64,000 nucleotides of DNA from an uncultured Acidobacteriaceae bacterium (GCA_963747805.1 CAVVGM010000004.1:807998-871997); one strand, 5' to 3'. Numbered from the stretch's first letter, positions 24,869 to 41,911 are shown. Notes: generated from the sequence alone by a model not told the origin. A program made the numbers and translations.

Positions 24869-25225
24869 ATGCCGCAAAACTACGTTCCCATCTTCATCTT
24901 CATTGCATTGGTTGGCGTGATGTTGCCGGTCACGCTCCTGGCTGCGAAGCTAGTGCGCCCGGATAATCCGAGCAAGACCAAGCTTATGCCGTACGAATGC
25001 GGCATCGACCCTATCGACAGCGCTCGCGGCCGCTATACGGTTCGGTATTACATCATCGCGATTCTTTTCGTAGTCTTCGATGTAGAAACGATTTTTCTGT
25101 TTCCCTGGGCGGTCAAGTTCAAGGCTTTTGGACTATTTGGCCTGATCGAGATGCTGATTTTCCTCGTCATCCTGATCGTGGGCTACATCTGGGTGTGGAA
25201 AAAAGGCGCGCTGGAATGGGTGTAA
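24869..25225 (+). CDS. nuoA: NADH-quinone oxidoreductase subunit A
   Basis: PYECGIDP...RYYIIAILFVVFDVETIFLFPWA signature. ATG at 24869 gives a typical ~118-aa NuoA. Confidence 0.9.
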   Translation: MPQNYVPIFIFIALVGVMLPVTLLAAKLVRPDNPSKTKLMPYECGIDPIDSARGRYTVRYYIIAILFVVFDVETIFLFPWAVKFKAFGLFGLIEMLIFLVILIVGYIWVWKKGALEWV

Positions 25226-25551
25226 CGCCGGCCACTCCCGCAGGCGCCGGCCCCACGGACACGTTCAGCGCCAGCCGCTGGACGCATGGCAACTTTCTGT
25301 TTCCCACACGGCTGGTGGTCAGTCCACAACGCGTGAGCCGGGTGAAGTCGCGTTTCTTCGGCAGCAACGAAGAGAGCATCGCCATGTCGAAGGTGGCGTC
25401 GGTGCATATTTCCACCGGCGTGTTCTGGTCGGAGATTCGTATCGAATCCACCGGCGGCACCGACCCCATCACCAGCCACGGCCACCGGAAAGCGGATGCG
25501 CAACGTATCCGCGCGCTAATCGAGGCATACCAGGGGCAGGCTCGCGTCTAG
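25216..25551 (+). CDS. Small bacterial PH-like (bPH) domain protein in the position normally held by nuoB
   Basis: ATG at 25216 overlaps the nuoA stop. WTHGNFLFPTRLVVSPQRVSRVKSRFFGSNEESIAMSKVASVHISTGVFWSEIRIESTGG resembles bPH-type small proteins as I remember them. This is not a NuoB sequence: it has no CCxxE or CPP Fe-S motifs. Confidence 0.5.
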   Translation: MGVTPATPAGAGPTDTFSASRWTHGNFLFPTRLVVSPQRVSRVKSRFFGSNEESIAMSKVASVHISTGVFWSEIRIESTGGTDPITSHGHRKADAQRIRALIEAYQGQARV

Positions 25552-25686
25552 CCGGAGTTCGCCCGCGACGCGCGAAGATTTTACAAACTCTTGCCCTGTG
25601 ATCTCGTTGACACCGTTTCTCCAAGCTGATAAAAGTTAACGTTCTTTGCAACGCAGACTGCGCCGAGGTCTGCGCGTTCGCGAGCC

Positions 25687-26442
25687 ATGCCGGACGAAAC
25701 CAAATCCCCGTCTACACCGCCGCCGGAAGATGCGCCGAAGCCGACGGCGGATCAGCCCGCGACTCCGAGCGGAGTCAAAGCTACTCCGTCGGGATCGGTT
25801 CAATCAGAGACGAAAACCCCTCCCGACAAGCCTGCCCCTGCTGGGGCGGTTCCGCCGAAACCAGCGTCTGGTGCGCCGGCAGCCGCGAAGCCCGCTGCCC
25901 CCGCTGCAGCGCATGCCGCTCCCGCGAAACCTGCCGCCCCCGTGCCCACTCCCTGGGACTCGCCCATGGTCGCGAGGTTCAAGCGCGAATACGGTTCCGG
26001 AGTCGAGCCGCTGACACATCTTGGGCAGAATTACATGGTCGTGGACCGTTCGCTCATCCCCGAAATTTTGCAGATCCTGCGCAACGAAGAACAGTTCGAC
26101 TACTGTGTGGATCTCACCGCAGTGCACTATCCCCAGCGCGAGAAGCAGTTCGATGTGGTTTGGGTGCTTTATTCCTTTCCGCGCAACGAACGCATCCGCG
26201 TAACCACGCGCATCGCCGACGGCGAGACTCTGCCGAGTTCGGTTCCCATCTGGACGACAACGAACTGGCTGGAGCGCGAAGTCTACGACATGTTTGGCAT
26301 CAAGTTTGACGGACATCCTGACATGAAGCGCATCCTGCTTCCCGACGGCTGGAAGGGACATCCCCTGCGCAAAGATTACGGCATCCTGCAGCAGGATAAC
26401 GAGTGGGTGCAGATCAACCTGGGAATTGAGAGCGGACAGTAG
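25687..26442 (+). CDS. nuoC: NADH-quinone oxidoreductase subunit C with a ~90-aa Pro/Ala/Lys-rich N-terminal extension
   Basis: The C-terminal 160 aa carry the NuoC pattern (DLTAVHYP...[30 protein letters not shown]). Confidence 0.9.
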
Positions 26443-26489
26443 ATACGGAGCTAGAGAAACCAACCAACGGAATTAGATCTGCGTATTTA

Positions 26490-27641
26490 ATGACCGACCC
26501 GAACACACTCTCGCCGCTCGATCTCGAAACGCCAGACAAGACGTTTCTCGACGCGAACGAGCTGGTCATCAACATGGGCCCGCAGCATCCTGCGACCCAC
26601 GGCGTGCTGCGCGTAATTTTGCGGCTGGATGGCGAGAAGGTGATGGGCCTGGAGTGCGTGATCGGCTACCTGCATCGCGGCGTCGAAAAAATTGCCGAGA
26701 ACCGCACCTACACAATGTTCAATCCCTACGTCGACCGCATGGATTACGTGGCCGCGGTCTCGAACGGCCTGGGATACTGCGAGACGGTCGAGAAGTTGCT
26801 GGGAGTGGAAGCTCCGCCGCGCGCGCAATATATTCGCGTCATCCTGACTGAGTTGAACCGCATGGCCAGTCACCAGCTTTGGCTGGGGACGCACGCGCTC
26901 GATATCGGCGCCATCACACCGCTGTTCTACACCTTTCGCGACCGCGAAGAGATTCTTAAGATCTTCGAAAAATATTGCGGCGCGCGTCTCACGACGCACG
27001 CCTTTCGCATCGGCGGCTTGCAATACGAGGCTTACGACGGCTTCGAGAAAGATGTGAAGAACTTCATTGCCTTCGTCACGCCGAAGATTGACGAATACGA
27101 AGAACTGCTGACCACGAATCGCATCTGGGTGGAGCGAACCAAAGGTGTCGGCGTCATCTCCGCCAAAGACGCGATCGCCCTGGGCGTTACCGGACCGGTG
27201 CTGCGGGCCAGCGGCGTGAAGTGGGACCTGCGCAAGGCGCAGCCCTACGCCAACTACAAGAATTTCGATTTCGAAATTCCCACCGGACAAAATGGCGACA
27301 CCTATGACCGGTATCTGGTGCGCATGGTCGAAATGCGGCAGTCGTTGCGCATCATCCAGCAGGCCGTGGACGGGTTGCCCGAAGGTCCTGTCATGGCGAA
27401 AGTTCCCAAGGTGATGAAGCCGCCAGTCGGCGAGGTGTATCACTCGATTGAAGCGCCGAAAGGCGAGCTGGGATATTTCATCGTGAGCGACGGCTCCACG
27501 CAGCCTTACCGGGTGCGCGTTCGCCCACCGTCTTTCGTGAACCTGCAGGCTCTGGATGTGATGTGCCGCGGCCAGCTCGTGGCCGATGTGATCGCCGTGA
27601 TCGGCACCCTCGACATTGTTCTCGGTGAGGTGGACCGCTGA
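26490..27641 (+). CDS. nuoD: NADH-quinone oxidoreductase subunit D
   Basis: [23 protein letters not shown], ...[13 protein letters not shown]...DIVLGEVDR. Confidence 0.95.
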
Positions 27642-28987
27642 TGCAACCCGTTATCGACTACATCACGTCCTACCTCAGCAGTTCCCAGACTCCCGGCGCC
27701 GCGGGAAATTTCTTTTGGGCCTTCGTCTACATTCTGCTTGTGTTCGTGGGTCTATCGGTCGCAGTGATCGCGATGAACTGGCTGGAGCGCAAAATTCTCG
27801 CTCACATGCAGGTGCGCCTCGGTCCCATGCGCGTAGGCCCGCACGGCCTGCTGCAGCCCATCGCCGACGCCATCAAGCTGCTGCTCAAGGAAGACATCAT
27901 GCCCGCCGAAGCCGACGGCTTCGTCTTCTGGATCGCGCCGTTCATCGTGGTGCTGGCGGCGTTCACGGTATTCGTGGTGGTTCCCTTCGGTCCGACGCAT
28001 GCCATCACCGATATGAATATCGGCATTCTCTTCATGCTGGGCGTGTCGTCGTTGAGCGTGCTCGGCATTGTGATGGCGGGCTGGGCATCGAATTCGCACT
28101 ATCCTTTGATTGGCGCCTTGCGTTCGAGCGCGCAGATGGTTTCCTACGAAGTGGCGATGGGCCTGGCAGTGGTTTCGGCCATCCTCATGACCAGCCTACA
28201 CGGACTAGGACTTTACGGCGCCGGTATTGCGGGCTCGGGTGACACGGGTACGCTCAGCATGATCGGCATTGTGCAGGCGCAGCAGGAGCAGGGCGTCTGG
28301 TTTGTCTTCAAGTTTTTCCCGCTGGGCTTGATCGCATTCTTCATCTTTGCCATCGCCATGGTCGCCGAGACCAACCGCGCCCCATTCGATCTGCCCGAAG
28401 CCGAGTCAGAGTTGACCGCCGGTTTCCATACGGAATACAGCGGCTTCCGCTGGTCGCTGTTTTTTCTGGCCGAATACTCCGCGATGATCGCGGTTTCGTC
28501 GATCGCAGTCACGTTGTGGCTGGGGGGATGGCTGCGTCCGTTCCCGAACCTGCTGCACGGTTCAACCTGGGATTTGCTCTTCAACCTGTTCCCCGGAATC
28601 ACGTTTCTGTTCCTCGCGGCGCTCTGCTTCTACAGCACGGCGCGCATGCCGAATCATCCCTACTTCAAAATTCAAACTATCGGCCTCGCCGGGTTCGGCG
28701 CGCTGCTTGGTTTGATCGGCGTCGTCCTGTTTATTCCCGCAGTTTTCGTTCGCGTTCAGGATATTTACTGGTTCGCGATCAAAGTTGCCGCGTTCATGTA
28801 CCTCTATATCTGGTATCGTGGCACGTTCCCGCGTTACCGCTTTGACCAGCTGATGAAAGTGGGATGGAAAATTCTGCTGCCCATGGGATTGGGATTGTTA
28901 ATCCTGACTGCGGTCATGGGTATGCGCTCGGAACTGTGGATGGGCGTGGTTGTGCCGCTGTGGCACTGGGTGGCAAGCATTCTATGA
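27641..28987 (+). CDS. nuoH: NADH-quinone oxidoreductase subunit H (enlarged, 448 aa)
   Basis: ERKILAHMQVRLGPMRVGP, ETNRAPFDLPEAESELTAGFHTEYSG, YRFDQLM. The start shares 1 nt with the nuoD stop. Confidence 0.9.
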   Translation: MQPVIDYITSYLSSSQTPGAAGNFFWAFVYILLVFVGLSVAVIAMNWLERKILAHMQVRLGPMRVGPHGLLQPIADAIKLLLKEDIMPAEADGFVFWIAPFIVVLAAFTVFVVVPFGPTHAITDMNIGILFMLGVSSLSVLGIVMAGWASNSHYPLIGALRSSAQMVSYEVAMGLAVVSAILMTSLHGLGLYGAGIAGSGDTGTLSMIGIVQAQQEQGVWFVFKFFPLGLIAFFIFAIAMVAETNRAPFDLPEAESELTAGFHTEYSGFRWSLFFLAEYSAMIAVSSIAVTLWLGGWLRPFPNLLHGSTWDLLFNLFPGITFLFLAALCFYSTARMPNHPYFKIQTIGLAGFGALLGLIGVVLFIPAVFVRVQDIYWFAIKVAAFMYLYIWYRGTFPRYRFDQLMKVGWKILLPMGLGLLILTAVMGMRSELWMGVVVPLWHWVASIL

Positions 28988-29499
28988 ATCCTCCCGTCGC
29001 GACACCGTTTTTCTTCTACCTGCTCTCCGGGACCATGCTGATCGGCGGCATCCTGGTGATCACGCGCAGGAACGCGGTGCACTCGGCGCTGGCCTTGATC
29101 GCCGCCCTGCTGGCGCAGGCCGGGCTCTACCTGATGCTCTACGCACCGTTCGTCGCTGGCGTGCAGATTATTCTCTATGCTGGCGGCATCATGGTGCTGT
29201 TCCTGTTCGTCATCATGCTGGTAAACCTGGAGCGCGCGCAGAAAGAGCGCCAGTTCAACAAGCAATGGCTAGTGGGGATCGCTGCCGCCGGCGCGCTGGG
29301 CGGTTTGTTCATCACGATCTATACGAAAGGGAAGGGAATCTTCCCCGATCACGCAATGCCCTCGGGCCTGGAAGCGGAGAACACCCAAAAAGTTGGCGTG
29401 CTTTTGTACGGCCAGTACATGTTCGCTTTCGAGATTGCATCGCTGCTGTTGCTGGTAGCGATCATCGGAGCGGTCGTGATGGCAAAGAAGAGGATTTGA
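28984..29499 (+). CDS. nuoJ: NADH-quinone oxidoreductase subunit J
   Basis: ATGA overlap with the nuoH stop. ...YAGGIMVLFLFVIML...FAFEIASLLLLVAIIGAVVMA. Confidence 0.85.
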   Translation: MNPPVATPFFFYLLSGTMLIGGILVITRRNAVHSALALIAALLAQAGLYLMLYAPFVAGVQIILYAGGIMVLFLFVIMLVNLERAQKERQFNKQWLVGIAAAGALGGLFITIYTKGKGIFPDHAMPSGLEAENTQKVGVLLYGQYMFAFEIASLLLLVAIIGAVVMAKKRI

Positions 29500-29504
29500 A
29501 AAAA

Positions 29505-29606
29505 GCATTTAGCAATTAGCATTTGGCATTTGGCCAGGCCATGGTTTTGCAGATACCGACAATCGCGGAAGGCTAATTGCCAATTGCGAACGGCTAATTG
29601 CAAAGA
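29505..29606. repeat. Two opposed heptamer arrays, (GCAWTTR)x4 and (GCYAATT-like)x5, separated by ~36 nt in the nuoJ-nuoK spacer
   Basis: gcattta gcaatta gcatttg gcatttg ... gctaatt gccaatt gcgaacg gctaatt gcaaaga. The second array is approximately the reverse complement of the first. Confidence 0.85.
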
Positions 29607-29620
29607 GCTTGCGAGCTGAT

Positions 29621-29956
29621 ATGGAATCCATGCTCCACATCTCGACGCTGCATTACATGGTGCTCAGCGCGGCCCTGTTTCTTTTGGGAGTAATCGGTGT
29701 GCTCACGCGCCGCAACGTGGTGATTGTACTGATGTCGATTGAACTGATCCTGAATGCAGTCAACTTGAACCTGGTCGCCTTCTCGCATTATTGGCAGGGC
29801 ATTCAGGGACCAAACGCCCTGCACGGCCAGGTGTTCGCGATTTTCGTAATCACCGATGCCGCCGCAGAAGCCGCGGTTGGTCTGGGAATCCTGATCGCCT
29901 TCTTCCGTAACAAGGAGACGATCAACGTGGACGAAGTGAATTTACTGAAATGGTAG
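29621..29956 (+). CDS. nuoK: NADH-quinone oxidoreductase subunit K
   Basis: [44 protein letters not shown] at 29621 chosen; 29630 is also possible. Confidence 0.9.
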
Positions 29957-29972
29957 AAGGCCGCTGTTGGCC

Positions 29973-30024
29973 TTTCGCTCTTGGCTTTTAGCTAAGAGCT
30001 AAGAGCCAAGAGCCAAGAGCGAAA
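29973..30024. repeat. Heptamer array (GCTAAGA x2, GCCAAGA x2, GCGAAAA) plus an upstream inverted copy that forms a 13-bp perfect stem ending at the nuoL ATG
   Basis: 29973-29985 tttcgctcttggc pairs with 30012-30024 gccaagagcgaaa. The nuoL ATG is at 30025. Confidence 0.9.
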
Positions 30025-32160
30025 ATGTTCTTATCCCACATCTGGCTCATCCCGCTGCTACCGGCGTTCGGCGCGACCGTCATGTTTTTTTTCGGACGCA
30101 AGCTGCAGAAAACTACGGTAAGCGCGGTGTGCGTGGGAACGATCGTGCTCGCGTTTCTAATGGCGTGCGGCGCGGTCTGGCAGTACTCCGCGTGGTCTTC
30201 GACGCCAGAACATTTTCATCAGCCCTACGAGAAGACGCTTTACACCTGGCTCGGCAGCGATACCGGCCATCTCACCTACAAAACACAATCGGGCGCGCCC
30301 GCCGAATTCCGCGCCGACGCCGGCTTCCTGCTCGACCCGCTCTCCAGCATCTGGCTGCTGTTCGTCACCGGCGTCGGCATGCTGATCCACATTTATTCCA
30401 CCGGCTACATGGCGCATGAAGGCGGCTACTACCGCTTCTTCGGCTATCTCAACCTCTTCATGTTCTCGATGCTGACGCTAATCCTGGCGAACAACTATGT
30501 GCTGCTGTTCGTCGGCTGGGAAGGCGTGGGGCTGTGTTCGTATCTGCTGATCGGTTTCTATTTTCACCGCAAGTCGGCCAGCGACGCGGCGAACAAGGCG
30601 TTCATCGTCAACCGCATCGGCGACGCAGGATTCCTGCTCGGGATGTTCTTCATCGCCTGGATCTTCGGCTCGCTCCAGTTCACCAAGGTTACTGACCTCG
30701 CTCGCGCAGGAAATCTCTCGCCTGAAACGTTAACCTACATCACCGCCGCCACGCTTCTTCTTTTCGTTGGCGCCTGCGGCAAGTCGGCGCAGATTCCACT
30801 CTACATCTGGCTGCCCGACGCCATGGAAGGCCCCACGCCAGTTTCCGCCCTGATCCATGCCGCGACCATGGTGACGGCGGGTGTCTACATGGTGGCGCGT
30901 TCGAATGCGCTGTTCGTGCTGGCGCCCACCTCGATGAAGACCGTGGCCATCGTCGGCGCGCTAACCGCCATCTTTGCCGCTTCCATCGGTTTGGTGCAGA
31001 ACGACATCAAGCGCGTGCTGGCCTACTCCACGGTCTCGCAACTCGGCTACATGTTCCTCGCTCTCGGCGTCGGAGCCTTCGCTGCGGGCGTGTTCCACGT
31101 TTTCACTCACGCGTTCTTCAAAGCGCTGTTGTTCCTCGGCTCCGGTTCGGTGATTCATGCCATGAGCGGCGAGCAGGACATGCGCAACATGGGCGACTTG
31201 CACCGCCGCATCCCCATCACGCACTGGACCATGTTCATCGCGACGCTGGCCATCGCCGGCATTTTCCCGTTTGCTGGCTTCTTCTCGAAGGATGCCATTC
31301 TCTGGGAGACGTGGTCGCGTGAAGGCGGCGCGTACCGCATTCTCTGGGGCGTCGGCTGGTTCACCGCGTTGATGACCGCCTTCTACATGTTCCGGCTGAT
31401 GTACCTGACGTTCCATGGCCGCCCGCGAATGAGCCACGACGTGGAACATCACATCCACGAATCGCCGGCGTCGATGACGGTCCCGCTGGTGACGCTCGCG
31501 CTCTGCGCCATCGTTGCGGGATGGCTGGGCTGGCCACACAGCCTCGGAGGTTCCGACCGCTTCACCAAATTCCTGGAGCCTGTCTTCGCGCCGGAAGCTC
31601 GCGTTCTTCAGCAAGAGGGGCAAACTGGTCAGTTGTACACCGGAGCGAAAGAAGAAGAACACAACACTGGCACGGAGTGGCTGCTGATGGGGCTGTCGCT
31701 GGCCGCAGCCGGCGCGGGATGGGGTGTGGCCTGGAGATGTTATCGCCACGCCGACAAGGGCTACACCGAGCCGATCGCCGCTGTTGCCCCGCCAGTCTAC
31801 AACGTGCTTCTCAACAAGTATTACGTAGACGAAGGCTACGACTATGTTTTCACCGGACGCCGCAAGATCGGAGATGTGCGCCTGGGCGTGATGGGTCTAG
31901 GCGAAGCAAGTTCGTGGTTCGACGCGCACGTCATCGACGGCGCCGTCAACGGCGCGGGATGGACGACACGCCTGTTCGCGACCATCTCCAGTTGGTGGGA
32001 CAAATGGATCATCGACGGCGTCGGCGTCAACGGCCCCGCGATTTTGGCGCGTATGTTGAGTTATCCCGCGCGCCTGCTCGAATGGGGCCAGGTGCAGTGG
32101 TATGCGCTGGTGATGACCGCCGGCCTGGTAGGGTTTGTATTTTATTACGTGTATCACTGA
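30025..32160 (+). CDS. nuoL: NADH-quinone oxidoreductase subunit L
   Basis: Mrp/antiporter-like core (GWEGVGLCSYLLIGF, KSAQIPLYIWLPDAMEGPTPVSALIHAATMVTAGVY) and a long C-terminal lateral-helix region. Confidence 0.95.
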   Translation: MFLSHIWLIPLLPAFGATVMFFFGRKLQKTTVSAVCVGTIVLAFLMACGAVWQYSAWSSTPEHFHQPYEKTLYTWLGSDTGHLTYKTQSGAPAEFRADAGFLLDPLSSIWLLFVTGVGMLIHIYSTGYMAHEGGYYRFFGYLNLFMFSMLTLILANNYVLLFVGWEGVGLCSYLLIGFYFHRKSASDAANKAFIVNRIGDAGFLLGMFFIAWIFGSLQFTKVTDLARAGNLSPETLTYITAATLLLFVGACGKSAQIPLYIWLPDAMEGPTPVSALIHAATMVTAGVYMVARSNALFVLAPTSMKTVAIVGALTAIFAASIGLVQNDIKRVLAYSTVSQLGYMFLALGVGAFAAGVFHVFTHAFFKALLFLGSGSVIHAMSGEQDMRNMGDLHRRIPITHWTMFIATLAIAGIFPFAGFFSKDAILWETWSREGGAYRILWGVGWFTALMTAFYMFRLMYLTFHGRPRMSHDVEHHIHESPASMTVPLVTLALCAIVAGWLGWPHSLGGSDRFTKFLEPVFAPEARVLQQEGQTGQLYTGAKEEEHNTGTEWLLMGLSLAAAGAGWGVAWRCYRHADKGYTEPIAAVAPPVYNVLLNKYYVDEGYDYVFTGRRKIGDVRLGVMGLGEASSWFDAHVIDGAVNGAGWTTRLFATISSWWDKWIIDGVGVNGPAILARMLSYPARLLEWGQVQWYALVMTAGLVGFVFYYVYH

Positions 32161-32175
32161 AGATCGCTCTCGGCC

Positions 32176-32230
32176 CTTGGCTCTTGGCTTTTAGCTAAAG
32201 GCCAAGAGCCAAAAGCCAAGAGCCAAAAGC
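32176..32230. repeat. Inverted plus direct heptamer repeats (GCCAAGA/GCCAAAA) forming a 16-bp perfect stem 5 nt upstream of the nuoM ATG
   Basis: 32177-32192 ttggctcttggctttt pairs with 32211-32226 aaaagccaagagccaa, with an 18-nt loop. The nuoM ATG is at 32232. Confidence 0.9.
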
Positions 32231-32231
32231 A

Positions 32232-33887
32232 ATGTATAACCACATACTCTCGATCATCCTCTTCACGCCGCTCGTCGGCGCGCTTGTGCTCCTGTTCGTT
32301 CCCAAGGAGAACAAGGACGCCATCCGCTGGATCGCCAACATCTTCTCGCTCGCCGGCCTTCTGGTTTCGATTCCACTGGTGCCCTGGTTCTGGGCGCAGC
32401 GCTTCGAGCCCGGGTTCAAGTTCACCGAGGGCGCTCTCAACAACTGGATTCCCTCGATCGGCGCCAGCTACATGCTGGGCATCGACGGCATTTCTTTCCT
32501 GCTGATCATGCTCACCACGCTGCTGGGCTGGATCTCGATTCTCTCTTCCTGGACCGCAATCGAGAATCGAGTGAAGGAATACTACATCTGGTTTCTGGTG
32601 CTGCAGACCGGCATGCTCGGCGTCTTCATGTCGCTCGACTTTTTCCTGTTCTTCGTTTTCTGGGAAGCCATGCTGGTTCCCATGTACCTGCTGATCGGCA
32701 TCTGGGGCGGCCCGCGCAAGCTCTACGCCGCCATCAAGTTTTTCCTCTACACGCTGGCCGGTTCGGTGCTTATGCTGCTCGGCGTCCTTTATCTTTACTT
32801 CAATCACCACAATCTCAAGGGCGTTTACACCTTCAGCATCGAACAGCTCTATACCACCGCGCCGCAGATTCCGTTCCACTTCGCGGTGTGGCTGTTCTTC
32901 GCGTTCTTCGTCGCCTTCGCGATCAAAGTCCCGATGTTCCCGTTCCACACCTGGCTGCCCGACGCCCACGTGGAAGCGCCCACGGCAGGCTCAGTCATCC
33001 TGGCCGGCGTTCTGCTGAAGATGGGGACGTACGGCTTCGTCCGCTTTTCGCTGCCGTTTTTCCCGCAGGTGCTTTCGAATCCGGCAACGTTTCTCAACGT
33101 GACCGTCCGCGGCTGGATGATCGGCCTCTCCATCGTTGCCATCATCTACGGCGCGCTGGTCTCGCTCATGCAGAAGGACATGAAGAAGCTGGTGGCCTAT
33201 TCCTCGGTCAGCCATCTCGGCTTCTGCACCCTAGGAATTTTCGCGCTGAATTCTGCAGGCTTGAGTGGTTCGGTCCTGCAGCAGATCAACCACGGCATCT
33301 CGACCGGAGCGCTCTTCCTGATCGTCGGCATTCTCTACGAACGCCGCCACACCCGCGAAATCTCCGAATACGGCGGCATCTCCAACGTGATGCCCGTCTA
33401 CGCCACCATCACCATGATCATGTTCCTGTCTTCGATGGGACTGCCGCTGCTCAACGGTTTCGTCGGCGAGTTCACCATCCTGCAGGGCACGTTCATGGAG
33501 AACTGGAAGTGGGGCGCGTGGGCCGTACCTGGAGTGGTCCTGGCCGCCGCGTATCTGTTATGGCTCTACCAGCGGGTGTTCTTCGGCACCGTCACGAATC
33601 CAAAAAACGAAAAGCTGCACGATCTGACGCCTCGCGAAGTCCTCACCTTCGCTCCGCTGATCATCGCCGCATTCTGGATCGGCCTGTATCCCAAACCGTT
33701 TTTCCAGATTCTGGAGCAGCCTGTCAATCACCTGGTAGCGACCGTGCATCAGAACGATGTGCAACCGCAGGGCATGATGAATGCCGCCGTCCAGCCTGAA
33801 ACTGTGCCAGCAATGCCGGCGTCAACGCCCGTCCCGGCAGCAGTCAAGAAATCCTCAGCAGCCAAACCTGCGAAAGGGAAGAACTAG
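32232..33887 (+). CDS. nuoM: NADH-quinone oxidoreductase subunit M
   Basis: FFVFWEAMLVPMYLLIGIWGG, KVPMFPFHTWLPDAHVEAPTAGSVILAGVLLKMG. Pro/Ala/Lys-rich C-terminal tail. Confidence 0.95.
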   Translation: MYNHILSIILFTPLVGALVLLFVPKENKDAIRWIANIFSLAGLLVSIPLVPWFWAQRFEPGFKFTEGALNNWIPSIGASYMLGIDGISFLLIMLTTLLGWISILSSWTAIENRVKEYYIWFLVLQTGMLGVFMSLDFFLFFVFWEAMLVPMYLLIGIWGGPRKLYAAIKFFLYTLAGSVLMLLGVLYLYFNHHNLKGVYTFSIEQLYTTAPQIPFHFAVWLFFAFFVAFAIKVPMFPFHTWLPDAHVEAPTAGSVILAGVLLKMGTYGFVRFSLPFFPQVLSNPATFLNVTVRGWMIGLSIVAIIYGALVSLMQKDMKKLVAYSSVSHLGFCTLGIFALNSAGLSGSVLQQINHGISTGALFLIVGILYERRHTREISEYGGISNVMPVYATITMIMFLSSMGLPLLNGFVGEFTILQGTFMENWKWGAWAVPGVVLAAAYLLWLYQRVFFGTVTNPKNEKLHDLTPREVLTFAPLIIAAFWIGLYPKPFFQILEQPVNHLVATVHQNDVQPQGMMNAAVQPETVPAMPASTPVPAAVKKSSAAKPAKGKN

Positions 33888-35431
33888 TGGGCGTGCTCTC
33901 CCAATTTTCCTGGACGGATTACCTGCTGGCGCTGCCCATTACTCTGCTCGCGTTGTTCGCCCTCGGCATCCTGCTCATCGACTTCATGCTCCCCAAAGAG
34001 ATGAAGTGGGCGAATGCCTTTACTGCGTTCATCGGAGTAATGTTCTCGATTGCCGGTGTCATCAAGATTCAGCTCTGGATGCACAGTGTCAACGTCCCGG
34101 GCGCTGCTGGTTTCATGAACACCATGCTGGTCGACCGCTTTGCCATTTATTTTTTCTATCTGTTCCTGGCAGCTACCGCCGTTGCTATTCTGATGTCCAG
34201 CCGCTACATGGAAATTGAGCACGAAAATCACGGCGAGTATTACGCTCTGATGCTGCTCTCAGTCGCCGGCATGATGTGCATGGCCGCCGGCTTCGATATC
34301 GTTCTGATCTTCATCGGCCTCGAACTGATGGCGATTTCCACCTACGTGCTAGTCGGTTTCCTGCGCCGCGACCGCCGCTCCAACGAAGCTGCCTTGAAGT
34401 ATTTGCTGCTGGGCGCGTTCTCCTCCGGCATTTTTGCTTATGGCCTGTCGCTGATCTATGGACTCACGGGCAGCACGAATCTTTACGAAATCGGCCGGCG
34501 CCTTCCGCTCATCATGCAGGGCAACCAGAAGCCCATCGCCATCGTGGCCCTGCTGACTACGATGACCGGCCTCCTGTTTAAGATTGCGGCCGTCCCATTC
34601 CACCAGTGGGCCCCGGACGCCTATGAAGGCGCGCCCACCAGCATCACCGGATTCATGTCGGTCGCGGTCAAGGCTGCGGGCTTTGCCATGCTCTTCCGCA
34701 TACTGATGGGCAGTCCGATCGCTCCAGGCGGACTGATTGCCATGCGTCCGATCTACGTCCCGCTTCTGGTCTTCGTCTCCATCGCGACCATGACCGGAGC
34801 GAACTTCGCCGCGCTCACGCAGACCAACACCAAACGCCTGCTGGCCTACTCCTCGATCGCGCACGTCGGCTACATGCTGCTCGGTTTGATCGCCGGAACC
34901 GCGACCGTCGTCAGCATGGACGGAATCAAGGGCATTCTGATCTATCTGCTGGTCTACACTTTCATGAACCTCGGCGCATTCGGCGTGATCACATCGCTAC
35001 GCCATCGCAAGGTAATCGGCGATGAACTCGACGATCTCAACGGCCTCTACTCGCGTGCTCCCATTGAGGCCGTGCTCATGCTCGTGTTCCTGCTCTCGCT
35101 GGCGGGCATTCCGCCGCTGGCCGGCTTCTATGGCAAGTATTTCATCTTCCTGAGCCTGATCGAGTCGGGACATTATGCCCTGGCCTCGCTAGGCGTTCTG
35201 TATTCCGTCTTCGGCCTCTACTACTACCTGCGGATGGCCAACGCCATGTTCATGGGCAAAGCCGAAGCGGGCGAAGCGCACCTCCCCGTGGGTATCGCGA
35301 TGCGCGCCGGCCTCACCATCACGGCCTTTGCCACGCTCTTCATCGGCATCCTCCCCGACCGCTTCATTCAGGTAGTGAACTGGGCTCTGGGCATCGCACA
35401 GAATCCCGCGATCGCAAAAGTAATCCGCTAG
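33887..35431 (+). CDS. nuoN: NADH-quinone oxidoreductase subunit N
   Basis: The GTG start shares 1 nt with the nuoM stop. LELMAISTYVLVGF, KIAAVPFHQWAPDAYEGAPT. Confidence 0.9.
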   Translation: MGVLSQFSWTDYLLALPITLLALFALGILLIDFMLPKEMKWANAFTAFIGVMFSIAGVIKIQLWMHSVNVPGAAGFMNTMLVDRFAIYFFYLFLAATAVAILMSSRYMEIEHENHGEYYALMLLSVAGMMCMAAGFDIVLIFIGLELMAISTYVLVGFLRRDRRSNEAALKYLLLGAFSSGIFAYGLSLIYGLTGSTNLYEIGRRLPLIMQGNQKPIAIVALLTTMTGLLFKIAAVPFHQWAPDAYEGAPTSITGFMSVAVKAAGFAMLFRILMGSPIAPGGLIAMRPIYVPLLVFVSIATMTGANFAALTQTNTKRLLAYSSIAHVGYMLLGLIAGTATVVSMDGIKGILIYLLVYTFMNLGAFGVITSLRHRKVIGDELDDLNGLYSRAPIEAVLMLVFLLSLAGIPPLAGFYGKYFIFLSLIESGHYALASLGVLYSVFGLYYYLRMANAMFMGKAEAGEAHLPVGIAMRAGLTITAFATLFIGILPDRFIQVVNWALGIAQNPAIAKVIR

Positions 35432-36257: not shown

Positions 36258-36512
36258 GTGCCACTTGCGCCTATGCCAAAACCACCCGACAACGACAGCC
36301 CCGAACAACAGAAGCGGAGCTTCTGGCTGCAGTTCGGCCGCTACAGCCAGTTGGCGTTCGCATTGCCCGCCGCAACGATCGCGGGTTGGCTTCTGGGCTC
36401 TCTGCTCGATCGCTGGCTGCACACGTCTTGGATCAGCGTAGTCGGCTTGCTGCTCGGCATTGCCGCAGGCCTGATTGAGCTGCTGCGAACCGTCTCCCGC
36501 GATATGCGCTGA
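36258..36512 (+). CDS. AtpZ/AtpI-family small membrane protein (F-ATPase operon leader gene)
   Basis: Two TM helices (YSQLAFALPAATIAGWLLGSLLD, WISVVGLLLGIAAGLIELL) directly upstream of the atp genes. ATG at 36273 is an alternative start. Confidence 0.7.
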   Translation: MPLAPMPKPPDNDSPEQQKRSFWLQFGRYSQLAFALPAATIAGWLLGSLLDRWLHTSWISVVGLLLGIAAGLIELLRTVSRDMR

Positions 36513-36526
36513 GGACTTTCAACCAG

Positions 36527-37057
36527 ATGGATTCGGCAACACCAGCATCGGACGACCCTGGGCCAACGAATCAAGGGCCAACGAATCAAGGAGCAACGAA
36601 TCAAGAACCAACGAGTCCCGGGGAGACGCACGGACCTGCGAGCCCGGAGGCCGCACCAGCCAATGATTTCTATTCGGGCGCAGTTGGGCGCATCCGCGGT
36701 TTCATGGCCGCCCTGGCGCTGGTACTCTCTGCGGCAGCCTGGTGGAGCTTCGGACGCTGGTCCGCGCTGGGTTTCGCCTTAGGTTGCGCCATCGCCTACC
36801 TCAATTTCCACTGGCTGAAGCGCGGCGTCAGCGGACTAGCCGACCGCGTCACCAACGCCGGCAAACCCCAGTCCGGCAGCGGGATCGTGGCCCGCTTCCT
36901 GCTGCGTTATGTTTTGCTGGGCGCCGCCGCGTATGTTATATTAACCAGTTTTCCCGCGAGCCTCCGGGGCCTCTTTGCGGGTCTGTGTTTACCCGTAGGA
37001 GCAATTGCCTGCGAAGCGATCTATGAGCTGTATGTATCTGTGTTTCGTGCCTCTTAG
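36527..37057 (+). CDS. atpI: ATP synthase subunit I-like membrane protein with an N-terminal GPTNQ repeat
   Basis: Position immediately upstream of atpB. Four hydrophobic helices (FLLRYVLLGAAAYVILT etc.). Confidence 0.6.
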   Translation: MDSATPASDDPGPTNQGPTNQGATNQEPTSPGETHGPASPEAAPANDFYSGAVGRIRGFMAALALVLSAAAWWSFGRWSALGFALGCAIAYLNFHWLKRGVSGLADRVTNAGKPQSGSGIVARFLLRYVLLGAAAYVILTSFPASLRGLFAGLCLPVGAIACEAIYELYVSVFRAS

Positions 37058-37099
37058 CAAAGCCTCCGCACAATGGCGGAGGAAGCTTAGGAATTCGAA

Positions 37100-37141
37100 G
37101 CTCAAAGCCAAGAGCTAAAAGCCGAGAGCTAAAAGCTGTCT
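37100..37141. repeat. Six tandem heptamers (GCTCAAA GCCAAGA GCTAAAA GCCGAGA GCTAAAA GCTGTCT) ending 1 nt before the atpB ATG
   Basis: Read directly. It is preceded by a 7-bp hairpin, cctccgc-acaatg-gcggagg (37064-37083). Confidence 0.9.
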
Positions 37142-37142
37142 T

Positions 37143-37901
37143 ATGCCTGAACAACTCTGGTTCACCGAAATCCTGAACCGCTTTCTGGCCGGCCCGGTCA
37201 CGGCGCTGCTCGGACTGCTGCATATTCCGCCCAAGCATCCGGACGCTCCCATCACCAATGCCTTCGCCATGGAACTGGTAGTTGCGTTTCTCCTGATTGC
37301 CGTGTTTCTGCTGCTGCGCTCGCGCTTGTCGGTGGACTCGCCCGGCGCCCTGCAGCACATTTTCGAAGGCACCGAAGGTTTCGTACTCGGCCAGAGCCGC
37401 GAAATTATCGGCCATCACAGCGAGCCTTACATTGCGTTCTTTGCCATCTTATTTATTTTCATTCTCGCCTGTAACCTGATCGGATTGGTTCCCGGCTTCG
37501 AGTCGCCCACAGGAGTTACGGTGGTGCCGCTCGGTTGCGCGATCTGCTCGTTCTTGTACTACCACATCCAAGGCTTCAAGCACTCGGGACCGAAATACCT
37601 CTTGCATTTCTTCGGACCGCCGATGGAAGGCATGCCGTTGATAGCCCGCATCGGGTTGGCAGCATTGATGTTGCCAATCGAACTGGTCAGCCACACAGCG
37701 CGATTGCTTTCGCTTACAGTTCGTCTCTGGGCTAACATTTTCGCCGGCGACCTGATCACCCTGGTTTTCCTTTCCATGATCCCGATTGGCGTTCCCATCA
37801 TCTTCATGGGTCTCCACATAATGGTCGCTGTTTTGCAAGCATACGTTTTCATGCTGTTGTCGATCATCTACGTCTCCGGCGCAGTCGCCGAAGAACACTG
37901 A
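37143..37901 (+). CDS. atpB: F0F1 ATP synthase subunit a
   Basis: LSLTVRLWANIFAGDL (essential Arg context), with 5-6 TM helices. Confidence 0.9.
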   Translation: MPEQLWFTEILNRFLAGPVTALLGLLHIPPKHPDAPITNAFAMELVVAFLLIAVFLLLRSRLSVDSPGALQHIFEGTEGFVLGQSREIIGHHSEPYIAFFAILFIFILACNLIGLVPGFESPTGVTVVPLGCAICSFLYYHIQGFKHSGPKYLLHFFGPPMEGMPLIARIGLAALMLPIELVSHTARLLSLTVRLWANIFAGDLITLVFLSMIPIGVPIIFMGLHIMVAVLQAYVFMLLSIIYVSGAVAEEH

Positions 37902-37953
37902 AAAGCAGGGGACAGTCAGCGGGCAGTGAGTGCGTTGCAGATACACGATTTTT

Positions 37954-37983
37954 CTGAGAGCTGAGAGCTGAAGGCTGAGAGCC
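37954..37983. repeat. Four tandem heptamers (CTGAGAG x2, CTGAAGG, CTGAGAG) in the atpB-atpE spacer
   Basis: Read directly. In the alternative phase these read GCTGAGA/GCTGAAG, the same family as the other arrays. Confidence 0.9.
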
Positions 37984-38073
37984 ACGACCTTAGAACTGTC
38001 CGCAAGCGTGAGGGCGTCTGCACGGTATGGCGTCAACCACCCACTGGCGGAAATTTAATACGAGGAGAAAACA

Positions 38074-38376
38074 ATGCGTAAGTTAAGTTATATGTTCATG
38101 ACTCTATCTGGTCTTTGCTTCGCCATGCCTGCATTTGCGCAGGGCGGGACGATGACTGACGCCAGTTGGGTCGCCATCACCGCCGGATTCTCCATGGCCA
38201 TCGCTTCCGCGGTCTGCGGCCTCGCCCAAGGCAAGGCCACAGCCGCCGCCACTGAAGCCCTGGCCCGCAACCCTGCCGCACGGCCAGGCATCCAGTTCGC
38301 CCTCCTGCTGGGCCTGGTGCTGATCGAATCACTAGCGCTGTACACGCTCGCGATTATCTTCCTGAAAGTGAAGTAG
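38074..38376 (+). CDS. atpE: F0F1 ATP synthase subunit c with a signal-peptide-like N-terminal extension
   Basis: The hairpin core is ...AVCGLAQGKATAAATEALARNPAARP...LLGLVLIESLALYTLAIIF. AGGAG RBS upstream. The N-terminus is MRKLSYMFMTLSGLCFAMPAFA|QG. Confidence 0.9.
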   Translation: MRKLSYMFMTLSGLCFAMPAFAQGGTMTDASWVAITAGFSMAIASAVCGLAQGKATAAATEALARNPAARPGIQFALLLGLVLIESLALYTLAIIFLKVK

Positions 38377-38510: not shown

Positions 38511-41276
38511 CTATCCCTTGCGCTCGCCGCTCCACTCCTGCCCCTTGTTCTGGGCAATCTGGTTCATGGCTTCCACCAGCACTCTACGCAGGCGGTAACG
38601 GCTCTCCAGATCGGTATTCACAATCTCGAATCCCACTTCGTTGACGCGCGCGCGGCGCAGCAACACATGCGCGCGGACCTTAGCCCGCATACCCACAGAA
38701 ATTTCCAGGTCCGCCTCACTGCCGATGCGCAGGTTGTCTTCTTTGGTCCCCATGCCGCCGCCCAGGCTGAGCTCGCGAATCATGATCCGCGATTTTCCCC
38801 ACGAGCTGCCAATGGTCGCGCTCACCGTGCGCGACAGCACCATGCGTTCGTAGCGACGTTGCCGTACCCAGGGGCATGCCGGAGCCATATCCAGCGGCGC
38901 AATCGCCAACTCCGCCGGCTCCAGCCCGCTGTCGGCGAGCACCTGCGGGCCATAGCGTGGGTCCGTCTTGGACAAAGCCTGTGCCGCCGCAATGCGCAGC
39001 TCGCGGTGGTGAACCCAACCAAAAGTTTTCTTGGCCTCAAGAATTTCGCGCAGCGTGGCCACAGCTTCAGGATCCCGCAACCGCCCCAGCGACTCGATCG
39101 CTTTCAACTGGATGAAGGGCGAACGCGAAGCCGACTCTCCCGGGCGTGCCATCGCAATCAGCGGCTGGGCAGCAGTAATGTCGCCGCTCATGCCAATCTC
39201 GTCAACCGCTTCCGGCAACACCAGCGGGTCGAGAATCTCGGCCAACTCCAGCAGCGTGCGGCCGCGGTCGATAGCCGCTCCATAAGCGATCTGCCGAACC
39301 GTAATATCGTGATAGAAGCGATTCCATTCCGGCAACCGCATGGGCAGCAATTCCAGCAGCGTGGCCGTATCCAGCCGGCTCAAAATCCCCACCGCCGCAG
39401 AAGCCTGCCGCAATTGTCCAGTGCGCAGAATCTCGCGCAGCTGGGCCATCACCGGCGCACCGACTTCCTTGACCAGTTCGATCATGCGGTCGCATTCATC
39501 ACGCCGCATGCAGCGGAAGAAGCGATCGGCCAAATGCTCTGCTCCGGCGCTGGCTGTCCGCCGCAAAACTGCAATCAGATCCTTGGGCACGGGGTCGCTG
39601 CGCAGGGCTTCTTCGATAAATTCAGGCAGCCGGTTTTCCACGCCCACGCGTGGCCGCAAGTCATTTCCCATCACCGGGCGTTGCGTGAAAACCGCTTCCA
39701 TGCTGGTGCAAACCTGATTCACCGCAGCGTAGTTCTTCGATGAACTCGCTTCCTGGCTCAACCGCACGAAAGCCGCGCTGATCAAGCTCTGCAGCTCGGA
39801 ATCCTTTTCCGTGATCAGCTGCTCGCTCAACTTGTGGATGGCGTCTCCCATGGCCTCACCGCCGAGCCGGGAGTAAAGATCGGCTAACTGGCTCAACCCA
39901 ATGGCGATCTTGCGGCGCGGCTCGATTTCTCGCGCATTCATGCAGCCGGAGTAGTTCTTCAAAATGTCTTCCGCGGTCTGCTTGTCGTCCCGTTCCAGCA
40001 GCACTTCCACAAACTGGCGCACGTTGCGCGGCGGGACGCAGGCCGCCTCATGCGAGAGCAGCACGCTTTTCTTTCCCGACTCCGGCACTTCCGCCCAGAA
40101 CATGCGGTCAAGAATGTCGGCATGCGAATCAATCAGGATGCCGGCCTTGCTCATTTTGTCTTCTTGCGTGCGCAGGATCTTGCGCAACGAGTCCATCTGC
40201 CGGCTCATGTGCTCCATCATCTGGTGCACGGCATTTACTTTGACTTCGCCCTTCTGGTACCGCTCCAGGGCGAAACGAATCGCCATATGCTCGGCCGCCT
40301 TCATCAGCAGCGGCGCATCCTCCTCCTCCGAGGTTGCCGCTTTCGCGGAAAGGCTGCCCAGCAGTTGTTGCAGGTTCAGCCGCGTATTAGGATCAACCGC
40401 AGCCATGTCTTTCTGCAGATCTTCCGTTCCAATACTGGGATCGTTCTGTGCTTGCCCGAAGCGAGTGAGCAGGCGAATGGCCTGCACCACTTCTTCTTCC
40501 TGTAAAGGCACAATGCCGCCGGTCCACGCCGGAGCAACGCCAGTTCCCGTACCGCCGCCACCACCGCCGCCGAGAGGAACGTTCGGCACGCTGCCCAGCG
40601 GTGCAGTTGGTCCGCCAACCGGCCCTTCGCCCTTGGAGTTCGCTCCCTCCGCGGCCGCAATCAACTGCAACAGCTTCTGCGGATCATTCAGCCATTGCTT
40701 AAACTCAGGACCCAGCGTCTGCGCCGCGATCTGCGCCGCGATGCTCACGTCTCCCGTAAGCGGATCGGCGGCAACAAACTTGACCTCGTTAATCCGAATG
40801 GTGCTGTTATTGTTCCCGAGGCCCAGAGCTTCTTTAATTTGCTTCGAAACATCCTGAGCCTTCGAGCCCCCGATGGTAAACGCCCGCACCAGTCGCGTGA
40901 AATCTTCGATCGTAACGTCTTTGGAAAAATGCAAGCTGGCCAGCCCGGCCGCGTTCAACAGGTTTGCAAAGCTGCGCTCCGCGTTTCCTGTCTCCAGTGG
41001 AATTCCATCGAGCAACAACTTGTTGTCCGACACGCCCAGCAAAAAGCCGCTGTCTCCCGCTGTGGGCAGGCCGTTCTGCAGTTCGTTCCACGTAGTCTCG
41101 AACTGCGCTTCGGTGCGCTTGTGCTCGTAGCCATACATACGCGCGTACTTGATCAGAATGTTCAGGCTATGAACAAACGCACGCGCCGAAGCGGCCCGGT
41201 TCTCTTGAGATGTGCTCTGGGCGGTGATAAGAATCTCCTCTAAACCCGCAGTAGCGCACACCAAGGGTAAGACCAA
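38511..41276 (-). CDS. Large multidomain protein: conserved N-terminal region, Gly-run linker, HEAT/PBS-lyase-like repeats and a C-terminal PilZ (c-di-GMP-binding) domain
   Basis: C-terminus has RQRRYER ... RELSLGGG (PilZ RxxxR and D/N-x-S-x-x-G-like motifs). HEAT-like LKAIESLGRLRDPEAVATLREIL. The start is uncertain (TTG at 41276; no early ATG). Confidence 0.75.
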   Translation of the reverse strand: MVLPLVCATAGLEEILITAQSTSQENRAASARAFVHSLNILIKYARMYGYEHKRTEAQFETTWNELQNGLPTAGDSGFLLGVSDNKLLLDGIPLETGNAERSFANLLNAAGLASLHFSKDVTIEDFTRLVRAFTIGGSKAQDVSKQIKEALGLGNNNSTIRINEVKFVAADPLTGDVSIAAQIAAQTLGPEFKQWLNDPQKLLQLIAAAEGANSKGEGPVGGPTAPLGSVPNVPLGGGGGGGTGTGVAPAWTGGIVPLQEEEVVQAIRLLTRFGQAQNDPSIGTEDLQKDMAAVDPNTRLNLQQLLGSLSAKAATSEEEDAPLLMKAAEHMAIRFALERYQKGEVKVNAVHQMMEHMSRQMDSLRKILRTQEDKMSKAGILIDSHADILDRMFWAEVPESGKKSVLLSHEAACVPPRNVRQFVEVLLERDDKQTAEDILKNYSGCMNAREIEPRRKIAIGLSQLADLYSRLGGEAMGDAIHKLSEQLITEKDSELQSLISAAFVRLSQEASSSKNYAAVNQVCTSMEAVFTQRPVMGNDLRPRVGVENRLPEFIEEALRSDPVPKDLIAVLRRTASAGAEHLADRFFRCMRRDECDRMIELVKEVGAPVMAQLREILRTGQLRQASAAVGILSRLDTATLLELLPMRLPEWNRFYHDITVRQIAYGAAIDRGRTLLELAEILDPLVLPEAVDEIGMSGDITAAQPLIAMARPGESASRSPFIQLKAIESLGRLRDPEAVATLREILEAKKTFGWVHHRELRIAAAQALSKTDPRYGPQVLADSGLEPAELAIAPLDMAPACPWVRQRRYERMVLSRTVSATIGSSWGKSRIMIRELSLGGGMGTKEDNLRIGSEADLEISVGMRAKVRAHVLLRRARVNEVGFEIVNTDLESRYRLRRVLVEAMNQIAQNKGQEWSGERKG

Positions 41277-41750: not shown

Positions 41751-41911
41751 CGTTCCCTCATTTCCGTCTGCAACGATATTCCGCAGTATAAAGCTGACTC
41801 TTGCGCGGGCGGCAGAACACGAGATGTCCGCGCTCCAGACCTGCCGCGGTGCGAAAATGATACAGTCGATTTGTTCCGAGGAATTTTGTTTTGCCATCTT
41901 CCACCAGCAAT

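Follow-up and report, generated by a model that had tools for sequence, protein, structure and literature searches.

A Complex I Gene Cluster Without nuoB and nuoI in Terriglobales, With Unlinked Genes as the Likely Source of the Missing Subunits

This analysis concerns a cluster of complex I (nuo) genes in a stretch of 64,000 nucleotides (nt) from an uncultured Acidobacteriaceae bacterium (GCA_963747805.1 CAVVGM010000004.1:807998-871997), herein referred to as the window. Ten consecutive plus-strand genes were found at positions 24869-35431, in the order nuoA-X-C-D-H-J-K-L-M-N. Nine of them were unambiguously assigned to Nuo subunits by Pfam and NCBIfam models, and the tenth is a non-Nuo gene, herein referred to as X. 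Genes for NuoB and NuoI are not encoded together with the other subunits here. It is quite likely that the products of this locus belong to a normal L-shaped enzyme, for which the window provides the membrane arm, NuoC, and NuoD, while NuoB and NuoI are provided by unlinked genes. The features of the cluster are listed below, with protein lengths in amino acids (aa) and, for nuoA, the ratio of nonsynonymous to synonymous substitution rates (dN/dS).

24869-25225, plus strand: nuoA (118 aa); Pfam Oxidored_q4, E = 4.9e-40; NCBIfam NuoA models, best E = 5.8e-40; dN/dS 0.02-0.07
25216-25551, plus strand: X (111 aa), predicted PH-domain fold, in the putative former nuoB slot; bPH_2 family matches, AlphaFold2, and Foldseek
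25607-25644, plus strand: promoter-like element 5' of nuoC, TTGACA-N14-TGn-TAAAAG followed by TTAACGTTC; conservation across loci
25687-26442, plus strand: nuoC (251 aa, of which residues 1-93, at 25687-25965, are an extension); Pfam Complex1_30kDa, E = 1.7e-42, residues 118-232
26490-27641, plus strand: nuoD (383 aa); NCBIfam equivalog NF008974, 529 bits (cutoff 522); TIGR01962, 517 bits
27641-28987, plus strand: nuoH (448 aa, two lineage-specific insertions); Pfam NADHdh, E = 7e-113
28984-29499, plus strand: nuoJ (171 aa); Pfam Oxidored_q3, E = 3.6e-40
29621-29956, plus strand: nuoK (111 aa); Pfam Oxidored_q2, E = 6e-31; NF004322, 132.6 bits (cutoff 128); start taken from independent gene calls
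30025-32160, plus strand: nuoL (711 aa, some 100 aa more than in Escherichia coli); NCBIfam NF005141 NuoL, 702 bits
32232-33887, plus strand: nuoM (551 aa, single copy); TIGR01972 NDH_I_M, 600 bits
33887-35431, plus strand: nuoN (514 aa); TIGR01770 NDH_I_N, 408 bits

All seven membrane-arm subunits (NuoA, NuoH, NuoJ, NuoK, NuoL, NuoM, and NuoN) matched their own Pfam families with E ≤ 1e-30, and the NCBIfam cutoffs were exceeded by NuoK, NuoL, NuoM, and NuoN. Alignment of NuoD to E. coli NuoCD revealed that the quinone-site His (HPATHGVLR) and Tyr (DRMDYV) are kept, as is the C-terminal LGEVDR. The models for hydrogenase large subunits gave this protein just 14-26 bits, with cutoffs of at least 390. 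For NuoL, NuoM, and NuoN, the Nuo models scored far above the Mrp or Hyf models. With a D subunit of the NuoD type and L, M, and N subunits of the Nuo type, the cluster does not appear to belong to the group 4 [NiFe]-hydrogenases or to the Mrp-type systems. In the alignment of NuoH, the acidic loop motifs are intact, the conserved AETNRAPFDLPEAESEL motif is present, and the two insertions fall approximately at residues 196-213 and 310-385. The additional residues of NuoL include an insertion in the C-terminal third, between the conserved antiporter-like core and the last transmembrane helix. This insertion is common to a canonical acidobacterial NuoL of 684 aa, from the locus L087 described below.

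The missing subunits were searched for by tblastn, with E. coli NuoB, NuoI, NuoE, NuoF, and NuoG as queries against all six frames of the window. No homologue of NuoB or NuoI was found in these 64 kb, the best E-values being 0.49 and 1.5, respectively. No homologue of NuoE, NuoF, or NuoG was found there either; one match to NuoF, 53 aa at 30% identity with E = 0.004, was judged to be noise. None of the ten proteins of the operon contains a NuoB-type or 2x[4Fe-4S] cysteine motif. The few matches to such motifs elsewhere in the window either do not fall within called reading frames or belong to genes with no relation to nuo. An earlier note on this sequence had described the same gene order, without nuoB, nuoI, and nuoEFG, and had maintained that the absence is not an annotation gap; the domain models and the six-frame search, which returned only noise, bear this out. 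The note had also pointed to an overlap of the nuoH stop and the nuoJ start as leaving no room for nuoI, and this overlap, ATGA at 28984-28987, can be read directly in the sequence. At the other boundary, the ATG of X lies inside the last codons of nuoA, with an overlap of 10 nt (ATGGGTGTAA).

Related loci were collected by a scan with NuoD, keeping one genome per species. In total, 80 loci were found, with NuoD identities to the window of 84-97%. All of them belong to Terriglobales, many are named Candidatus Sulfotelmatobacter, and some lie on megabase-scale contigs of metagenome-assembled genomes (MAGs). The window itself stems from a soil acidobacterium of Terriglobales, close to Candidatus Sulfotelmatobacter. 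The order A-(X)-C-D-H-J-K-L-M-N was found in every one of these loci that spans the region. Within 10 kb on either side, no NuoB or NuoI homologue was found in the 80 loci except for the hydrogenase-like genes of one of them (L072, see below). No NuoI-like gene is located between nuoH and nuoJ in any related locus, and the larger apparent H-J gaps in some relatives are split alignments. A set of 120 additional metagenome loci, totaling 743 kb, likewise yielded no homologues of NuoB, NuoI, NuoE, NuoF, or NuoG. Because the order recurs in the 80 genome loci and these subunits are missing from the 120 metagenome loci, the absence of nuoB and nuoI is far beyond chance or assembly error. The locus also does not encode a 14-subunit complex I, nuoE, nuoF, and nuoG being absent from the window and from the related loci.

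The cluster is under purifying selection and is neither an artefact nor a decaying paralogue. In pairwise comparisons with eight orthologous loci, dN/dS was 0.02-0.17 for all ten genes, including X. The copy in the window has no frameshifts, and the layout is kept across at least 200 loci (80 genomes and 120 metagenome contigs).

The likely ancestor of this layout was found among other Acidobacteriota. A consensus NuoB probe retrieved an acidobacterial NuoB (P0152) that is encoded in a canonical nuoA-B-C-D-H-I-J-K operon (locus L086). Proteins of the window are 63% (NuoA), 62% (NuoD), 58% (NuoK), 46% (NuoJ), 45% (NuoH), and 39% (NuoC) identical to those of this operon, and its NuoC has a shorter Lys/Pro-rich N-terminus. 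The genes of seven other relatives of NuoB, which represent distinct sequence clusters, all lie in operons of the same type. One of these loci, L087, contains the complete A-B-C-D-H-I-J-K-L-M-N order followed directly by ATPase_gene1 (atpZ-like). Downstream of nuoN in the window lie a GNAT gene and, after it, atpZ, atpI, atpB, and atpE. On the basis of the protein identities to L086 and the ATPase_gene1 synteny with L087, the window cluster is the orthologue of the 11-subunit, NuoEFG-less acidobacterial operon, minus nuoB and nuoI. In Terriglobales, both genes would have moved out of the 11-gene operon. After the loss of nuoI, nuoH would have come to abut nuoJ, and the nuoB slot would have turned into a variable boundary.

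The canonical nuoABCDHIJKLMN operons of Acidobacteriota (L086-L095) resemble the window cluster in having no genes for the N-module and, in L087, in adjoining an ATP-synthase gene and encoding a long NuoL. They differ in having nuoB and nuoI in the operon, whereas the gap between nuoA and nuoC (A-C gap) in the window is taken up by a PH-domain gene plus a distinct promoter-like element. Operons for 11 subunits have been surveyed in the Bacillus cereus group, Bacteroidetes, Chlorobi, and others (Moparthi and Hagerhall, 2011). With the Bacillus-type 11-subunit enzyme, the window cluster shares the NuoD family NF008974 and the ATP-synthase neighbors (Moparthi and Hagerhall, 2011). The 2M-type complex I (Chadwick et al., 2018), another variant without nuoEFG that is present in Acidobacteria (Acidobacterium capsulatum and SbA5), is different: its operons include a second nuoM gene, retain nuoB and nuoI, and are ordered D-I-H, while the window has one nuoM and neither nuoB nor nuoI. 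The order L-M-N with a single NDH_I_M-type gene was found in the window and its relatives, apart from fragmented matches in a few, which argues against the 2M type.

For the genus of many of the related loci, the location of the missing genes can be taken from published annotation. All the acidobacterial MAGs of Hausmann et al. (2018; PMC6018796) carry at least one nuoACDHJKLMN operon, and one operon per MAG adds nuoEFG. Among them, Ca. Sulfotelmatobacter SbA1 and SbA7 represent the same genus-level lineage as the window and have the same gene order. In SbA7, a coding sequence of unknown function is located between nuoA and nuoC (PMC6018796), in the position equivalent to X. The second operon of Sulfotelmatobacter, the one with nuoEFG, is also without nuoB and nuoI (PMC6018796). 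Both genes are listed on "other" scaffolds (PMC6018796, Table S2b): nuoB as SBA1_120039, SBA1_270046, SBA1_1080008, and SBA7_520049, and nuoI as SBA1_820058, SBA1_1030003, SBA7_20007, SBA7_90010, and SBA7_1830002. The numbers of these paralogues, one to three of each gene, are close to the number of A-C-D clusters, which fits dedicated unlinked partners, although sharing is also compatible with the counts. A similar picture was found for the NDH-I operon of A. capsulatum, which consists of ACP_0296 (nuoA), ACP_0295 (nuoC), ACP_0294 (nuoD), ACP_0292-0290 (nuoEFG), ACP_0289 (nuoH), and ACP_0288-0284 (nuoJ-N) (PMC11636273, Table S3). A. capsulatum is likewise a member of the Terriglobales. Its operon has no entry for nuoB or nuoI, these cells of the table being empty, and differs from the window cluster by the presence of nuoEFG (12 genes); it is expressed at about 500-1700 transcripts per million at 10 uM O2 (PMC11636273, a study of 2024). 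The 2M-type operon of A. capsulatum does hold nuoB and nuoI (PMC11636273). According to a genome survey of 2025, most Acidobacteriota have the full set of complex I subunits.

We infer that NuoB and NuoI are supplied in trans to the Nuo proteins of the window as well; for members of the same genus, this arrangement is the published annotation. The nine Nuo proteins account for the complete membrane arm (A, H, J, K, L, M, and N) together with NuoC and NuoD. A working quinone reductase would additionally need NuoB, carrying the iron-sulfur (Fe-S) cluster N2 and half of the quinone cavity, and NuoI, carrying N6a and N6b. Electrons could be delivered by ferredoxin, by another carrier, or by the NuoEFG module of the second operon. 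The identity of the donor is a general question for 11-subunit enzymes, and we know of none outside cyanobacteria. The earlier note had offered two options, Fe-S subunits coming from elsewhere or a non-canonical assembly, and the first is favored by the nuoB and nuoI genes on other scaffolds of SbA1 and SbA7, by the conservation of the cluster and the purifying selection, and by the retained NuoD residues.

Several observations weigh against a supply in trans. The consensus probe and P0152 gave 120 NuoB matches each, and the eight of these that were placed on contigs, all acidobacterial, sit in canonical nuoA-B-C operons of other lineages, with none in a genome bearing the operon without nuoB and nuoI. 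The lists for SbA1 and SbA7 come from draft MAGs, and the pairing of nuoB and nuoI paralogues with particular operons is not stated there (PMC6018796), while the A. capsulatum table merely leaves the nuoB and nuoI cells blank (PMC11636273). Finally, the promoter-like motif of nuoC was found 5' of no other gene in the related loci or at 120 metagenome sites, so it gives no sign of co-regulation with unlinked partners. A separate tblastn search with NuoB against the PLSDB plasmids matched rhizobial, Bacillus, and similar replicons, none of them acidobacterial.

A sub-variant of the supply in trans, possible but on the doubtful side, would have one or a small number of unlinked nuoB and nuoI genes supplying two or three sets of NuoC, NuoD, and membrane arm, both with and without NuoEFG. 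The isoforms would then have their Fe-S core in common and differ in the remaining subunits. It is suggested by the absence of nuoB and nuoI from both operon types of Sulfotelmatobacter and from the NDH-I operon of A. capsulatum, where the sole listed nuoB and nuoI lie in the 2M operon (PMC11636273). However, SbA1 has three nuoB genes, two nuoI genes, and three A-C-D clusters, and SbA7 has three nuoI genes, so that dedicated paralogues explain the counts at least equally well. Moreover, the NuoB-NuoD interface is tight and co-evolving, and considerable divergence would be expected between NuoD paralogues from different types of operon.

In a non-canonical assembly, the encoded proteins would either do without NuoB and NuoI, acting for instance as an ion translocator similar to Mrp, or borrow the NuoB-like and NuoI-like subunits of a group 4 [NiFe]-hydrogenase; such an assembly seems very improbable. 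The lack of nuoB and nuoI in or near approximately 200 loci would agree with it, as would a trio of HyfC-like, HycF-like, and HycG-like genes located 6 kb upstream of the cluster in L072. Nevertheless, NuoD scores above its equivalog cutoff, and its quinone-site His and Tyr would be sensible only beside NuoB and cluster N2. The hydrogenase trio was found in only 1 of the 80 loci, and its small subunit has the motif GGCNGCDIE instead of the CCxxE of NuoB. Besides, the published annotation for the same genus includes nuoB and nuoI genes at other genomic locations.

The H-, I-, and B-like genes of L072 (L072:112-2136) were also considered as the missing subunits themselves. They were rejected, being the tail of a cluster of the group 4 hydrogenase/formate-hydrogenlyase type. 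This tail is followed by genes for a membrane protein resembling polysulfide reductases and for a 4Fe-4S protein on the other strand.

That the cluster is a paralogue, silent or in decay, of some complete operon could be argued from the presence of more than one nuo cluster per genome, but this possibility is extremely remote in view of the low dN/dS, the intact frames, and the layout shared by at least 200 loci. The analogous nuoB/nuoI-less operon of A. capsulatum is, in addition, highly expressed. The scenario of the earlier note in which a silent copy lies next to a complete 14-gene operon does not apply to this lineage: its NuoEFG operon is also without nuoB and nuoI, and no complete operon is thus left to fall back on. 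A loss of both genes by misassembly or misbinning, conceivable for a metagenomic source, is practically negligible, given that the junctions are identical among independent assemblies of many projects, megabase-scale contigs included, and that the nuoH/nuoJ and nuoA/X overlaps leave no space for a lost gene.

Gene X occupies the position of nuoB in the canonical operon. The earlier note had rightly called it an unrelated 111-aa open reading frame. The window protein matched the Pfam family bPH_2 (PF03703) with E = 1e-3 and 19.7 bits, under the cutoff of 22 bits. Within its family, 35 of 36 members matched bPH_2 at E ≤ 0.01, with a best value of 2.2e-5. An AlphaFold2 model built from a diverse alignment (confidence score pLDDT 89.8; predicted template modeling score 0.78) contains seven strands and a C-terminal helix at residues 92-110. 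Nearly all top matches of this model in a Foldseek search of the PDB were PH or PH-like proteins with template modeling (TM) scores of about 0.55-0.63, including the bacterial DUF1696 and Shewanella PH proteins. X is therefore predicted to have a PH-like fold, a seven-stranded beta sandwich capped by the C-terminal helix. An earlier AlphaFold model from a shallow alignment (pLDDT 55) was discarded.

The X family includes 3949 homologues at 90% clustering and 546 clusters at 50%, and its members are named "PH domain-containing protein [Ca. Sulfotelmatobacter]" at NCBI. By count from the sequence, X is basic, with 13 Arg and Lys vs. 8 Asp and Glu residues, and it contains no cysteine. Its dN/dS is 0.02-0.16. 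Among the longer members of the family, no NuoA-X fusions were found, just miscellaneous domain combinations.

In most related loci, X is located between nuoA and nuoC, and it abuts nuoA in about 20 of them. X was undetected in 13 loci, and the A-C gap was examined in nine of these. In five of the nine, the gap contains a gene for a protein of about 200 aa whose N-terminal zinc ribbon is accompanied by a hydrophobic stretch and a bPH_2 domain:

L035:8343-8945, minus strand: zinc-ribbon/bPH_2 protein
L036:8265-8897, minus strand: zinc-ribbon/bPH_2 protein
L023:8368-8994, minus strand: zinc-ribbon/bPH_2 protein
L029:1704-2303, minus strand: zinc-ribbon/bPH_2 protein
L073:8219-8818, plus strand: zinc-ribbon/bPH_2 protein

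Comparison of this protein with the X family by hhalign revealed no detectable relationship, each of them matching bPH_2 separately. Other inserts, located between X and nuoC, are a DUF1761 gene (L010 and L017) and a phosphodiesterase gene (L021). Because zinc-ribbon/bPH_2, DUF1761, or phosphodiesterase genes occupy the A-C gap in some loci, the nuoB slot is a boundary of varying content, not a position that is fixed in the operon, with some PH-domain gene as its usual occupant.

X might be a lineage-specific accessory subunit or assembly factor, with the unlinked nuoB and nuoI providing a shared Fe-S core for two or three isoforms of the complex, but this proposal seems rather unlikely. In genomes without X, the zinc-ribbon, membrane-anchored PH protein would take over the accessory role. 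The 10-nt overlap with nuoA, the purifying selection, the basic and cysteine-free composition of X, and the recurrence of a bPH_2 gene in the slot are all compatible with such a role. By analogy with cyanobacterial NdhS, X could possibly serve as a basic docking module for the electron donor.

The promoter-like element lies some 50-80 nt upstream of the ATG of nuoC and consists of 38 nt, TTGACA-N14-TGnTAAAAGTTAACGTTC. The exact element has a single site in the window, with 0 expected from shuffled sequences. The pattern TTGACW-N14-TGnTAnAAR was found in 52 of 76 orthologous upstream regions. Columns of the element are at least 90% conserved while the flanks vary, and in the relatives it occurs once per locus, always 5' of nuoC. 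A 23-mer from the element has 120 sites in metagenomes of the Joint Genome Institute (JGI), each of them either 5' of nuoC or next to nuoA-X at the end of a contig. As a bait for co-regulated nuoB and nuoI genes in these metagenomes, the 23-mer gave no lead.

The element reads as an extended -10 sigma-70 promoter and probably drives nuoC-N as a separate unit. The conserved stretch is wider than the -35 and -10 hexamers (CAAGCTGA...GTTAACGTTC), a hint of a candidate regulator-binding site. The element and the genes that some genomes have inserted here on the opposite strand suggest, taken together, that nuoA(-X) is transcribed separately from nuoC-N. This agrees with the regulation reported for A. 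capsulatum, where nuoA and nuoC respond differently from the downstream genes (PMC11636273). An apparent hairpin in the 5' untranslated region of nuoC was rejected as a feature, no consensus structure being found across 44 sequences. A simple scan for promoters and terminators inside the operon found nothing above the shuffle expectation.

Residues 1-93 of NuoC form a Pro/Ala/Lys-rich extension ahead of the conserved domain. The earlier note had described a low-complexity extension here, and it was found to be in frame: the reading frame is open, and its start and end are conserved in most of the 75 other loci having nuoA and nuoC. Across these loci, its length is approximately 35-120 aa and varies by whole codons. 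The extension is thus a genuine coding feature and is probably disordered. Gene calls in ENA begin NuoC at an internal Met, giving a protein of 158 aa, and these calls are probably too short. A low-complexity N-terminal extension of NuoC is also a feature of the 11-subunit complex I of Bacillaceae (Moparthi and Hagerhall, 2011).

The earlier note implied that this layout is new, but it had already been recorded (Hausmann et al., 2018; PMC6018796). For the genus, the gene order, the unlinked nuoB and nuoI, and the inserted gene are all on record in supplementary material without discussion, and nothing essential in those operons differs from the window. That study passes over the missing nuoB and nuoI, the fold of the inserted gene, the NuoC extension, and the spread of the layout. 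The present analysis adds, as increments, the breadth of about 200 loci, the probable derivation from a canonical 11-gene operon, the predicted PH fold of X, the genuineness of the NuoC extension, and the conserved element upstream of nuoC.

The layout is unusual, not startling, because split sets of complex I genes are known in other lineages. In cyanobacteria and chloroplasts, the core ndh genes, including those for the homologues of NuoB (NdhK) and NuoI (NdhI), are distributed over several transcription units, and this relative of complex I also has small lineage-specific accessory subunits. The grouping is different there: ndhK is found with ndhC and ndhJ, and ndhI with ndhA, ndhG, and ndhE. 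If nothing more lies behind the layout described here, it is a case of operon fragmentation, in which even the tightly interlocked NuoB and NuoI can be encoded apart from their partners. In that case, genome-mining pipelines that rate complex I on the clustering of its genes would wrongly assign "partial" complexes to abundant soil Acidobacteria. The layout also raises the questions of whether each nuo cluster has its own unlinked NuoB and NuoI paralogue or the isoforms share them, and of whether the PH-domain gene in the nuoB slot contributes to how an 11-subunit complex I is assembled or receives its electrons.

Other genes of the window were also annotated. The atpZ (ATPase_gene1), atpI, atpB, and atpE genes 3' of the nuo cluster are located at 36258-38376 and are cut off by a convergent gene for a 921-aa protein (38511-41276, minus strand). 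No gene for the b, delta, alpha, gamma, beta, or epsilon subunit follows atpE on the plus strand; thus, the atp genes also appear to be split in this genome. A 650-aa protein encoded at 41891-43843 combines CHAD, HD, and Ppx/GppA domain III with an N-terminal Lys/Thr/Ala-rich repeat (KTATAKIATAKTAEKKT) and is probably related to polyphosphate metabolism. In keeping with the taxonomic placement of the window, on the minus strand, at 51599-54067 and 54292-56214, a duplicated MacB/FtsX permease of the acidobacterial "ADOP" type adjoins a regulator with winged-helix (Trans_reg_C) and TPR domains, a gene pair typical of Acidobacteria.

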